From the IMG/VR virus record IMGVR_UViG_2778261058_000012: a stretch of 4,279 nt of DNA; one strand, written 5' to 3'. Within the stretch, counting starts at the first letter, position 1. Every line of letters begins with the position of its first letter. The DNA is from a virus. Lineage: Duplodnaviria; Heunggongvirae; Uroviricota; Caudoviricetes. A program made the position numbers and the translations under genes. Below, one piece after another: positions 1-4,082 of the stretch. The notes under the pieces were generated by a model. The model was not told the DNA's origin. It saw only the letters and a program-made list of their open reading frames with translations, and ran no database searches.

Positions 1-55
1 TCCTGTTTACCTCTTTCTCAGGAAGTTTAGTCTCCAGGATTCCCGGGGCGGTTCA
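1..55 (-). mobile_element. Terminal inverted repeat and leader of an IS3-family insertion sequence (IS629/IS1203/IS3411-like), partial; the element body lies left of the window
   Basis: Minus-strand reading of 1..55 is TGAACCGCCCCGGGAATCCTGGAGACTAAACTTCCTGAGAAAGAGGTAAACAGGA: it begins with the TG dinucleotide typical of IS3-family ends and has a GAGG Shine-Dalgarno at the window edge where the orfA start codon would follow. Matches my recollection of the IS629 left end; not verified by search. Confidence 0.55.
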
Positions 56-76
56 CATCGCCTTTTGCTGCTTCAT
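56..76 (-). pseudogene. hokD: hokD/relF toxin gene remnant: first 7 codons (MKQQKAM) only, cut by the IS insertion
   Basis: Minus strand ATG AAG CAG CAA AAG GCG ATG (76..56) encodes MKQQKAM, the N-terminus of HokD as I recall it; the next triplet is the TGA that is also the first 3 nt of the IS inverted repeat. Position is immediately downstream of relE, as in the relB-relE-hokD operon. Confidence 0.5.
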
Positions 77-1922: not shown

Positions 1923-2150
1923 TTAAGAATCTACCCTATGAATGGATATGCACTCAACCGAATCGATCTTGGTTTCAATCTTTTTTATCGGGATCAGGCT
2001 TCTTTTTAGGTAACTTCGGGGGCTTAACTTGCTGATGACTTTGCGTTCGGCGCGTAAGCCAGGGATGGTCAGCTTTAGGTTTAACATAGTATTTTGAGCG
2101 TAAATCAATACGGGCATTATCCACTCGTTCATGGACACTCTTTTCATCAT
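1923..2150 (-). CDS. Hypothetical 75-aa ORF, start overlapping the stop of the O-like gene (ATGA); possibly a remnant of the next replication gene
   Basis: Minus-strand ATGATGA at 2150..2144 gives the stop of the upstream gene and the start of this ORF in one 4-nt overlap. No recognisable family; followed by ORF-free DNA. Confidence 0.25.
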   Translation of the reverse strand: MMKRVSMNEWIMPVLIYAQNTMLNLKLTIPGLRAERKVISKLSPRSYLKRSLIPIKKIETKIDSVECISIHRVDS

Positions 2151-2875
2151 CCAGTGGTAGGCTCTTTTGGTCGCATGATCTCGCCATCATCACTGGCTGC
2201 CTGTTCGTAGAGACCCACGATCCGCCCCCAGATCCACTGCGCACACGCCAAATCCTCCCTGCTACCCCACTGGCGTTTTTTCGCACTAAACACAACCGCG
2301 TCGGAGTTCCGGGTTAAAAAATCCTGTTCAGTCGTCTGCGGGTCCGGTTGCGAAGCTTCCGGACGAAAAGTGTTTTTATTCTCTGTAGTAATCTCTGTTG
2401 TATTCTCTGTAAGATCATCAGGCCATTTTGACCCGATGACATTGGGTCGTTTTGAACCAATGGAGCGTTTCATTTTGACCTCTTCCATCGTGTCATTTTG
2501 ACCTGATGGAGCGGCGCATTTTGAACCGATGGATTCGCTCAATTTGCCACCATCTAAAAGCTCGCTCCCATAGTTGATCGTGTAGAAATTGGTCATATCG
2601 CGCTTTGATTTATTGAGCTTTTCACAACGCAAAAGCCCCAGCGTTTTCAGACTTGCAAACGCGCGCTTTAACGTTGACTCTGACCAGAATGGGAACTGTT
2701 CCAGCCATTGTTCCGTTGTGTTATAAATCCAGCGAACACCATCACATTCCATGCCGGAGTTGGTATCTCTCAACCAGTAGTGCAGTTGTTGCAAAACAAT
2801 GGCTTCGTTTAAGCCAATTTTCATTGCCAGCTGCGTGTTTATAACCAGTGGGCGTTCAGCAAAAAGAAGGCTCAT
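2147..2875 (-). CDS. Phage replication initiator, functional analogue of lambda O (iteron-binding origin protein); start assigned to ATG at 2875, alternatives TTG 2929 or ATG 2824
   Basis: Third gene of the dicC-led minus-strand operon, the position of lambda O. The coding sequence contains five direct repeats that translate to repeated IGSK-containing peptides (SESIGSK..RSIGSK..NVIGSK), followed by an AT-rich repeat block, the hallmark of an origin embedded in an O-type gene. The ORF-track start at 2929 is TTG and overlaps the upstream gene by 74 nt; ATG 2875 overlaps by 20 nt. Confidence 0.65.
   Translation of the reverse strand: MSLLFAERPLVINTQLAMKIGLNEAIVLQQLHYWLRDTNSGMECDGVRWIYNTTEQWLEQFPFWSESTLKRAFASLKTLGLLRCEKLNKSKRDMTNFYTINYGSELLDGGKLSESIGSKCAAPSGQNDTMEEVKMKRSIGSKRPNVIGSKWPDDLTENTTEITTENKNTFRPEASQPDPQTTEQDFLTRNSDAVVFSAKKRQWGSREDLACAQWIWGRIVGLYEQAASDDGEIMRPKEPTTG
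2378..2412. repeat. AT-rich block with three tandem 12-bp repeats (TCTCTGT-NGTA-N) flanking the iterons; candidate DNA-unwinding element
   Basis: TCTCTGT at 2380, 2392 and 2404, within TGTTTTTATTCTCTGTAGTAATCTCTGTTGTATTCTCTGTAAGA; encodes the repetitive peptide TENTTEITTENKNT. Iterons followed by an AT-rich tract is the same order as in lambda ori. Confidence 0.45.
2423..2555. repeat. Iteron array (candidate prophage replication origin) inside the O-like gene
   Basis: Direct repeats with core CATTTTGA(C/A)C starting at 2424, 2448, 2471, 2494 and 2517 (period 23-24 bp, about two helical turns), plus a degenerate sixth copy AATTTGCCACCATC at 2541..2554. The fuller consensus CATTTTGA(C/A)C(C/T)GATGG is met by the first, fourth and fifth copies only. 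Confidence 0.65.
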
Positions 2876-3377
2876 AATTCCATCCAGCTTTTTGTTGGTA
2901 TTGCTGTCGATACGCAAGTTTGAAAGCAATTGCTTTTTCTATAAGTTCGTCAGTTTCACGATCCACTACGGCAGGATCAGCAAAAAGCAGTCCGGACTCC
3001 ACCACATCGCCATATTCTTTGTTTAACCCGGCGATCATGCACGTGATGCTTTTTCCGTCAGTAATTTCACGATACAACCTGAAATCATTAATCCGGATAG
3101 CCTCCATAATTGCAGGCACTAGCGCCGTGAACTTTTCACGCTTATCCCTGGTGTCGATAGCCTTCCAGCGTTCAAATATCTTCACTCGATTAACGCCAAG
3201 CGCTCGCTGATCAATCGCGCCACCTTCATATGTGACACGCTGAACATCGATGTTCGGGCGCTCTTTCAAAGCCCAGAATGCTTCAGTGATTAATATCGTC
3301 GCCTGCTCCTGTGTCATTCCTGGTCGACATATCCAGGCATCCAGAGCCTCACGAGCCTGTTCAGGAGTGATTTTCAT
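2856..3377 (-). CDS. YdaT-family protein (CII-position regulator, toxic on overexpression in Rac), 173 aa
   Basis: Second gene of the operon, overlapping the dicC 3' end by 17 nt. Begins MKI and has an internal KREKFTALVPAIMEAI segment resembling the REK..LIPAIL region I recall from Rac YdaT; the family assignment rests on recalled similarity and synteny (cro-like, then ydaT-like, then replication gene). Confidence 0.5.
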   Translation of the reverse strand: MKITPEQAREALDAWICRPGMTQEQATILITEAFWALKERPNIDVQRVTYEGGAIDQRALGVNRVKIFERWKAIDTRDKREKFTALVPAIMEAIRINDFRLYREITDGKSITCMIAGLNKEYGDVVESGLLFADPAVVDRETDELIEKAIAFKLAYRQQYQQKAGWNYEPSFC

Positions 3378-3591
3378 TGTTCAACCGCCCCGCCCGCTTC
3401 GTCTTACGATATTCATCATAAACTTTGGGATCATACTGAAGCTCCCCGCCAGATGCCTCCTGTAGACGCATCGCGCGACCTTCGGGAACTAAATCCCCTT
3501 TCCAGCTATAAAGCGAAGCCAAACGAATACCTGCTGCTTGTGCAAGTTTTGTTTTTGAACCGAAATACAAAAGAGCGTCAGTTTTAAGCAT
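3361..3591 (-). CDS. dicC: DicC, Cro-like transcriptional regulator of the prophage immunity region, 76 aa
   Basis: Translation MLKTDALLYFGSKTKLAQAAGIRLASLYSWKGDLVPEGRAMRLQEASGGELQYDPKVYDEYRKTKRAGRLNNENHS matches E. coli DicC as I recall it; AAGGTG Shine-Dalgarno; divergent from dicA. Confidence 0.9.
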   Translation of the reverse strand: MLKTDALLYFGSKTKLAQAAGIRLASLYSWKGDLVPEGRAMRLQEASGGELQYDPKVYDEYRKTKRAGRLNNENHS

Positions 3592-3674
3592 TTAAAACAC
3601 CTTTATTGTTAGTCATAACTAACAAGATAGATGTTAACAAAAACATAGTCAATACGATTTAGCATTAGCTAACT
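3592..3674. promoter_or_regulatory. Divergent dicC/dicA promoter-operator region
   Basis: 83-bp AT-rich intergenic region with a 20-bp palindrome TTGTTAGT-CATA-ACTAACAA (3606..3625) and a second partial palindrome ATGTT-AACAAAA-ACAT (3631..3646), the type of operator that DicA and DicC would be expected to bind. Confidence 0.6.
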
Positions 3675-4082
3675 ATGGAAACAAAAAATTTAACTATCGG
3701 CGAACGCATCAGGTATCGTCGGAAAAACCTCAAACACACCCAAAGGTCTCTTGCTAAAGCCCTGAAAATCTCCCATGTGTCTGTATCACAATGGGAACGG
3801 GGTGATAGTGAACCTACAGGGAAGAACCTTTTTGCCCTCAGCAAAGTATTGCAATGCTCACCAACATGGATTCTATTTGGCGATGAAGACAAGCAACCAA
3901 CACCACCTGTTGAGAAGCCAGTTGCCTTATCCCCCAAAGAACTAGAGCTCCTTGAGCTGTTTAATGCACTGCCAGAATCAGAACAGGATACCCAGCTCGC
4001 CGAAATGCGAGCTCGAGTAAAAAACTTCAATAAACTCTTTGAAGAATTACTAAAAGCCCGTCAGCGGACAAATAAAAGATAA
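3675..4082 (+). CDS. dicA: DicA, cI/C2-like HTH repressor of the prophage (represses the dicB cell-division-inhibitor operon), 135 aa
   Basis: Translation METKNLTIGERIRYRRKNLKHTQRSLAKALKISHVSVSQWERGDSEPTGKNLFALSKVLQCSPTWILFGDEDK... matches E. coli DicA as I recall it; N-terminal XRE-type HTH. Confidence 0.95.
   Translation: METKNLTIGERIRYRRKNLKHTQRSLAKALKISHVSVSQWERGDSEPTGKNLFALSKVLQCSPTWILFGDEDKQPTPPVEKPVALSPKELELLELFNALPESEQDTQLAEMRARVKNFNKLFEELLKARQRTNKR

Follow-up and report, generated by a model that had tools for sequence, protein, structure and literature searches.

The window analysed here, a stretch of 4,279 nucleotides, is the immunity region of a Qin-type lambdoid prophage of Escherichia coli. 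The 173-codon gene at positions 2856..3377 on its minus strand probably encodes a YdaT-type regulator of this prophage, a functional counterpart of lambda CII that would activate an antisense promoter directed toward dicA. The evidence consists of the open reading frame, the membership of its product in the YdaT family, a conserved gene order and the conservation of an inverted repeat (box) together with a linked -10 hexamer. A role as a lysis/lysogeny regulator had been suggested in a preliminary description of the sequence, and it gains support from homology to the characterised YdaT proteins of CP-933P (PMC9986795, PMC8630535) and Rac (PMC11879457).

On the minus strand, read from right to left, dicC (3361..3591), which encodes the Cro analogue and opens the operon (NCBIfam DicC, 1.8e-47), is followed by the 173-codon open reading frame and by the O-like replication initiator gene (2147..2875, minus strand, ATG at 2875), which is C-terminally truncated. 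The 173-codon frame starts with ATG, and the ORF listing gives exactly the coordinates originally assigned to it. To the left of the O-like gene lie ydfW, flxA, ydfV, relB and relE. The CI-analogue repressor gene dicA (3675..4082, plus strand), identified by family-model matches, is divergent from the dicC operon, and the promoter scan placed a P_R-like promoter for dicC and the YdaT-like gene at 3624..3652 on the minus strand (TTGACT, 17 nt spacer, TATCTT). As the 3' end of dicC overlaps the start of the YdaT-like gene by 17 nt, and the 3' end of the YdaT-like gene overlaps the ATG of the O-like gene by 20 nt, the three genes form a compact rightward operon behind this promoter. This layout bears out one of the original claims, namely that the gene sits after the Cro-like gene and ahead of the replication genes; of the translational coupling to dicC that was also claimed, the 17-nt overlap is real, while the coupling itself would be a deduction from it.

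The dicA-dicC intergenic segment (3596-3635) contains inverted repeats, e.g., TGTTAG-ttatga-CTAACA at 3607-3624. The dicC promoter is overlapped by these repeats, which presumably represent the DicA/DicC operators. Searches with PADLOC and Rfam returned no match anywhere in the window.

Based on its sequence and predicted fold, the 173-aa protein belongs to the YdaT family. The search against Pfam, proposed as a check in the preliminary description, matched YdaT_toxin (PF06254) over residues 59-131 above the curated threshold, by a modest margin (24.2 bits against a gathering score of 21, E 4.5e-5); the same label is precomputed on nearly all homologues. YdaT_toxin was the sole Pfam family at E<=1, and no match to Phage_CII, the lambda CII family, was obtained at this level. 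The match to PHROG 163 'CII-like transcriptional activator' in the phage-protein library was far stronger (E 5.5e-40), and no NCBIfam model matched the protein. Compared with the PDB as a single sequence by phmmer, the protein reached YdaT structures at E 0.06-0.08 only, and because of this weak similarity profile and structure comparisons were needed to secure the assignment. A profile of the subfamily (39 sequences) aligned with the YdaT structures 8bt1 and 3c4r at E 5e-6 and 1e-5, respectively, covering the whole N-terminal domain, and with Rac YdaT in hhalign at a probability of 97.4% (E 9e-12); BLASTP against Rac YdaT gave E 2e-6. The start and internal segment originally described as shared with YdaT are both present: the N-terminal MKI and, at residues 79-94, KREKFTALVPAIMEAI, the counterpart of which in Rac YdaT is NQQNIYHRWLKGETKTQREKIQKLIPAIL, align with Rac YdaT as well as with the solved YdaT proteins 8bt1 and 3c4r.

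The database searches delimited a subfamily of 160-173-residue proteins in Escherichia, Salmonella, Citrobacter, Enterobacter and Raoultella, the members of which outside Escherichia are 36-46% identical to the window protein. Numerous database entries for the YdaT-like protein are truncated or frameshifted variants, and the chimeric or frameshifted sequences P0042, P0046, P0051, P0061, P0103, P0108 and P0111 were left out of the alignment used for modelling.

The AlphaFold2 model built on the subfamily alignment, a confident one (mean pLDDT 85), shows an N-terminal POU-like HTH domain (helices 5-16, 23-36, 57-73 and 77-97), followed by C-terminal helices at residues 99-106, 111-130 and 135-164. 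The model also contains a long alpha2-alpha3 loop (residues 37-56), and an unusually long loop at this place is a hallmark of the YdaT family (PMC9986795). Residues R70/W71 align with R60/W61 of CP-933P YdaT and R57/W58 of Rac YdaT, and both are invariant in the 39 subfamily sequences. In Rac YdaT, R57/W58 lie in the recognition helix and their mutation abolishes DNA binding (PMC11879457); the recognition-helix arginine is the sole residue of that helix that is fully conserved across the family (PMC9986795). The preliminary description had also proposed a structure prediction as a way to look for a CII-like DNA-binding fold. A DNA-binding domain of the POU-like HTH type is indeed predicted, but the fold is not like that of lambda CII, and no CII structure was among the listed PDB fold matches of the model. 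The protein is therefore regarded as a functional analogue of CII and not as its homologue.

The C-terminal region departs from that of canonical YdaT, in which a single long helix builds the four-helix-bundle tetramer needed for DNA binding and is followed by a disordered tail (PMC9986795). Two long helices (111-130 and 135-164) are predicted in the window protein instead of one, and for this reason a tetramer is not assured.

A putative variant YdaT box, TTGAAC-AATGAA-AATCAC in gene orientation, is located at 3367..3384 and carries the ATG of the gene inside its spacer. The footprint of CP-933P YdaT, a tetramer that switches on a leftward promoter, covers TTGATT-N6-AATCAA where ydaS borders on ydaT (PMC9986795, PMC8630535), and that of Rac YdaT covers ATGATT-CATGAA-AATCAA, in which the ydaT ATG likewise falls within the spacer (PMC11879457). 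The candidate box is in the same register as this footprinted Rac box. No other site in the window matches TTGATT-N6-AATCAA with at most three mismatches, and the box itself has three; about four matches with three mismatches are expected by chance in a window of this size, so the argument for the box is one of position and conservation alone.

TGAACAA and ATCA are conserved in all nine distinct subfamily loci, in surroundings that are not conserved, and the core TGA-N10-TCA, present in the same nine of nine, ties the subfamily box to the canonical one. Moreover, the Cro-like genes whose 3' ends contain TGAACAA are dissimilar, differing in length (71-87 aa) and in their Pfam hits. The six other Cro-like proteins that were checked (L004-L009, at about 3990-4004 in each locus) all end in -EQ(x)*, since the conserved TGAACAA in the box of the downstream gene supplies their final codons; the dicC gene of the window reads TGAACAA in another frame, and the DicC tail is LNNENHS. 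On the other side of the start codon, the right half-site partly coincides with codons 2-4 (K-I-T) of the YdaT-like gene, which means that part of the shared M-K-I start is the right half-site of the box. Canonical boxes were also present near the 5' end of the gene in seven further phage and prophage loci, including those of Klebsiella, Pectobacterium and Stenotrophomonas phages.

A second candidate operator at 3240-3257 (CTGAAC-ATCGAT-GTTCGG), which ranked second in a weight-matrix scan for further boxes, was rejected, as its score lies within the range of shuffled sequences and it is absent from relatives. It is a near-perfect palindrome with a 14-bp perfect core and the subfamily half-site GAAC; it lies within the YdaT-like gene, at a distance of 127 bp from the box at the start codon, and is probably due to chance. 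A shift of the start codon in L006 and L009, considered as evidence of conserved box spacing, was likewise discarded, since the first ATG is altered there by a point change and no indel is involved.

The box is linked to a predicted -10 hexamer, TACGAT, at 3405..3410 on the plus strand, assigned on comparative grounds only to an antisense, activator-dependent promoter analogous to P_RE. The hexamer begins 21 nt past the box; with this spacing the box is centred at about -41.5, and transcription is predicted to start near 3416-3418. On the antisense strand, a hexamer of the form TAnnnT follows the box at 21-22 nt in all 17 YdaT-family loci compared, namely the window, Rac (box at L003 3678-3695), L004-L009, L017, L018 and L022-L028. 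Seven of the 17 are phage loci that were fetched only once the rule had been formulated (Tritos, two Klebsiella phages, mEp237, HK639, Stenotrophomonas BUCT708 and Pectobacterium ZF40). Rac carries TATGAT on the antisense strand, 21 nt from its box, and the spacing holds even where the box is located 36-41 nt upstream or 48 nt downstream of the annotated start. TAnnnT has a background frequency of 1.0% per position in these loci, and on the sense side none of the 16 loci scanned had TAnnnT at offsets of 21-22 nt. When six independent lineages only are counted, the probability of the arrangement arising by chance is of the order of 1e-10.

In the loci compared, the box is centred at -41.5/-42.5, where an activator that replaces the -35 element classically sits. 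The scan of the window for consensus sigma-70 promoters found the rightward dicC promoter only and no antisense promoter; this is expected for an activator-dependent promoter, yet it counts as no support for one. The geometry of the box and hexamer, a purely comparative result, supports a P_RE analogue that would start near 3416-3418 and read antisense through dicC into dicA.

The proposed mechanism combines these elements with what has been described for the characterised YdaT proteins. The DicA-repressed rightward promoter would transcribe dicC and the YdaT-like gene together, yielding a protein with an N-terminal POU-like HTH domain and a C-terminal helical region that may serve in oligomerisation. 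This protein would bind the inverted repeat straddling its own start codon (3367-3384) and activate an otherwise silent antisense promoter (-10 TACGAT, 3405-3410; box centre at about -41.5). Transcription from there would read back through dicC into dicA, giving more repressor and opposing dicC expression, a logic that would parallel that of lambda CII at P_RE. We infer the DNA binding, the activation, the direction of regulation and the oligomeric state of the 173-aa protein. As DicA represses the operon in the lysogen, the protein may be rarely made. With respect to activation, leftward transcription toward racR was raised 29-fold in Rac, an effect that required the box (PMC11879457).

A broader reading of the comparative data is that YdaT-family regulators, including the Qin-type ones, could be class-II-type activators, for which the promoter is part of the box: the centre would lie at about -41.5/-42.5 with TAnnnT 21-22 nt beyond, and the P_RE analogue would be at the cro-like/ydaT junction and not at its published placements. 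We regard this generalisation as evenly balanced between being right and being wrong. The Rac YdaT-dependent promoter has been placed about 190 bp from the box (PMC11879457); in the activation assay, as described in the available text, the fragment held both sites, and the box alone was mutated. The putative promoter of CP-933P has been placed upstream of the box, and the published work on that system reports no transcription start mapping. The two experimental systems are at present in disagreement on where YdaT-dependent transcription begins, and the box-plus-hexamer geometry offers a concrete prediction of this start. If the class-II reading is true, the conserved MKI start of YdaT proteins would be largely a by-product of the DNA site.

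The position of the box over the start codon and ribosome-binding region of the gene itself also fits a repressor, which would bind mainly for autoregulation of its own translation or transcription, or as a roadblock to rightward transcription into the replication genes, and would activate no antisense promoter. YdaT is termed a repressor several times in the structural paper, which describes its site as lying over a proposed transcription start (PMC9986795), and Rac YdaT also binds over the rightward promoter (PMC11879457). However, reporter assays in CP-933P (PMC8630535) and in Rac (PMC11879457) show YdaT-dependent leftward activation, and autorepression leaves unexplained the antisense hexamer found at a fixed distance in 17 of 17 loci, even where the box is away from the start. 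As the sole role of the protein, repression is thus considered unlikely, although repressor and activator roles are compatible and not mutually exclusive.

It is worth noting that the word 'toxin' appears in both the Pfam and the NCBI names of the family, and the preliminary description left room for a toxin and described Rac ydaT as growth-inhibitory when overexpressed. The latter holds: induced Rac YdaT is toxic and leads to filamentation and death (PMC11879457). The same study attributes this toxicity to over-activation of host rcsA, i.e., to a side effect of a transcription factor, and CP-933P YdaT is without toxicity (PMC8630535). The toxin-antitoxin idea was the prediction of an algorithm and was not confirmed by experiments, and YdaS/YdaT is not a toxin-antitoxin pair (PMC5917428, PMC8630535). 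For the window protein, the predicted fold is that of a DNA-binding HTH domain, sequence and model suggest no other activity, and PADLOC recognised no defence system. That the protein is the toxin partner in a DicC/YdaT-type toxin-antitoxin pair, or a natural inhibitor of host growth or division, is accordingly very improbable. 'Toxin' is a historical database label, and a DNA-binding regulator rather than a toxin appears to be the best reading of this CII analogue.

The comparison with E. coli K-12 explains the origin of its ydfX gene. K-12 YdfX (b1568, 96 aa), which adjoins dicC, consists of residues 1-93 of the window protein followed by three foreign residues and a stop, and the DNA comparison showed that K-12 lacks window positions 2165-3097. 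YdfX is therefore a deletion remnant, which kept the DNA-binding domain and lost the C-terminal region. When CP-933P YdaT is cut back in the equivalent way, to residues 1-96, the product is a monomer that fails to bind DNA (PMC9986795, section 3.6); by analogy with this inactive form, YdfX is probably inactive, and the window carries the intact allele.

The prophage in the window has also lost DNA. In comparison with E. coli VG35A2 (L001 8116-10006), it is without about 1.9 kb, comprising the 3' end of the O gene, a DUF977 gene and an IS1202-like remnant. As a result of this deletion the O-like replication gene is truncated, its product having 242 aa here and 321 aa in intact relatives; the regulator is thus intact within a defective prophage. 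The deletion junction is located at window positions 2150-2164. The deletions in the window and in K-12, which look independent, end beside ydfW at sites that agree to about 5 bp, and the junctions show an overlap of 7-10 bp; this suggests a recurrent, perhaps IS-associated, breakpoint. At the left edge of the window hokD is interrupted (1-76, minus strand): seven codons match K-12 HokD (MKQQKAM) and are followed by a stop. The leftmost 45 nt or so of the window have no match to the Qin sequence of K-12 or VG35A2.

The defective prophage, with its truncated O-like gene and interrupted hokD, the 93-residue remnant in K-12 and the numerous truncated or frameshifted database variants could mean that the intact gene is idle, its conservation reflecting recent common descent and not selection in this genome, but this is highly improbable given that 2121 of 5426 complete E. 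coli genomes (about 39%) have the gene over at least 80% of its length and at high identity, that the same protein, identical or about 98% identical, is encoded by phages, and that the box and hexamer are conserved in relatives with 36-46% protein identity, other genera included.

The phages concerned are Escherichia phage PhiR42_1, in which the identical protein is annotated "cII, activator protein cII", and HannyBb and mEp460_ev081, which have near-identical copies. The order of CI-like, Cro-like, YdaT-like and replication genes is kept in six diverse Enterobacterales loci (L004-L009), and the same order was observed in Rac and in the phage records examined, including PhiR42_1 and mEp460_ev081; in these two lambdoid phage records the gene is labelled cII or unknown. 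ATCC 8739 has a gene that is 100% identical, under the NCBI name "toxin YdaT family protein", in a locus whose left flank differs from that of the window.

The identity of the gene is thus already known: databases assign it to the YdaT family or call it cII, and K-12 YdfX has been called the Qin YdaT homologue in print. Being already annotated, this identity matters little in itself. What is added here is the explicit relationship to ydfX, the variant half-site, the extra C-terminal helix and the box-linked -10 hexamer. The enigmatic ydfX of K-12 can be understood as the stump of a CII-type regulator, and in about 39% of complete E. coli genomes, unlike in K-12, the DicA/DicC switch over the division inhibitors DicB and DicF may have a third player.

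Among the known systems, CP-933P YdaT (8bt1; PMC9986795), with its close relative 3c4r, shares about 30% identity with the window protein over the aligned part. It has 141 aa in comparison with the 173 aa of the window protein, and it carries a single tetramerisation helix and a disordered tail where the model of the window protein has two long helices. The left half-site of the box reads TTGATT in CP-933P and TTGAAC in the window.

Rac YdaT (PMC11879457) resembles the window protein in several respects. The box straddles the ATG in an identical register (ATGATT-CATGAA-AATCAA in Rac and TTGAAC-AATGAA-AATCAC in the window), both loci have an antisense TAnnnT hexamer at 21 nt from the box, the equivalents of R57/W58 are conserved, and the gene is located between the Cro analogue and the replication genes. 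The two differ at Rac His56, which corresponds to Glu69 in the window protein and to Gln in most of the subfamily, and in their partner genes, which are racR/ydaS in Rac and dicA/dicC in the window.

Qin YdfX of K-12 occupies the same locus, has the same 17-nt overlap with dicC and is identical over residues 1-93, whereas its whole C-terminal region is lost. Lambda CII and P22 C1 differ from the window protein in fold, and sequence similarity to them is absent, with no Phage_CII match in Pfam at E<=1; the target of lambda CII is moreover a direct repeat (TTGC-N6-TTGC), in contrast to the inverted repeat of the YdaT family. Their likeness to the window protein consists of the same position in the immunity region and, as proposed here, of the same task, in which an activator encoded in the rightward operon would turn on a leftward promoter at the cro/cII border that reads into the repressor gene.
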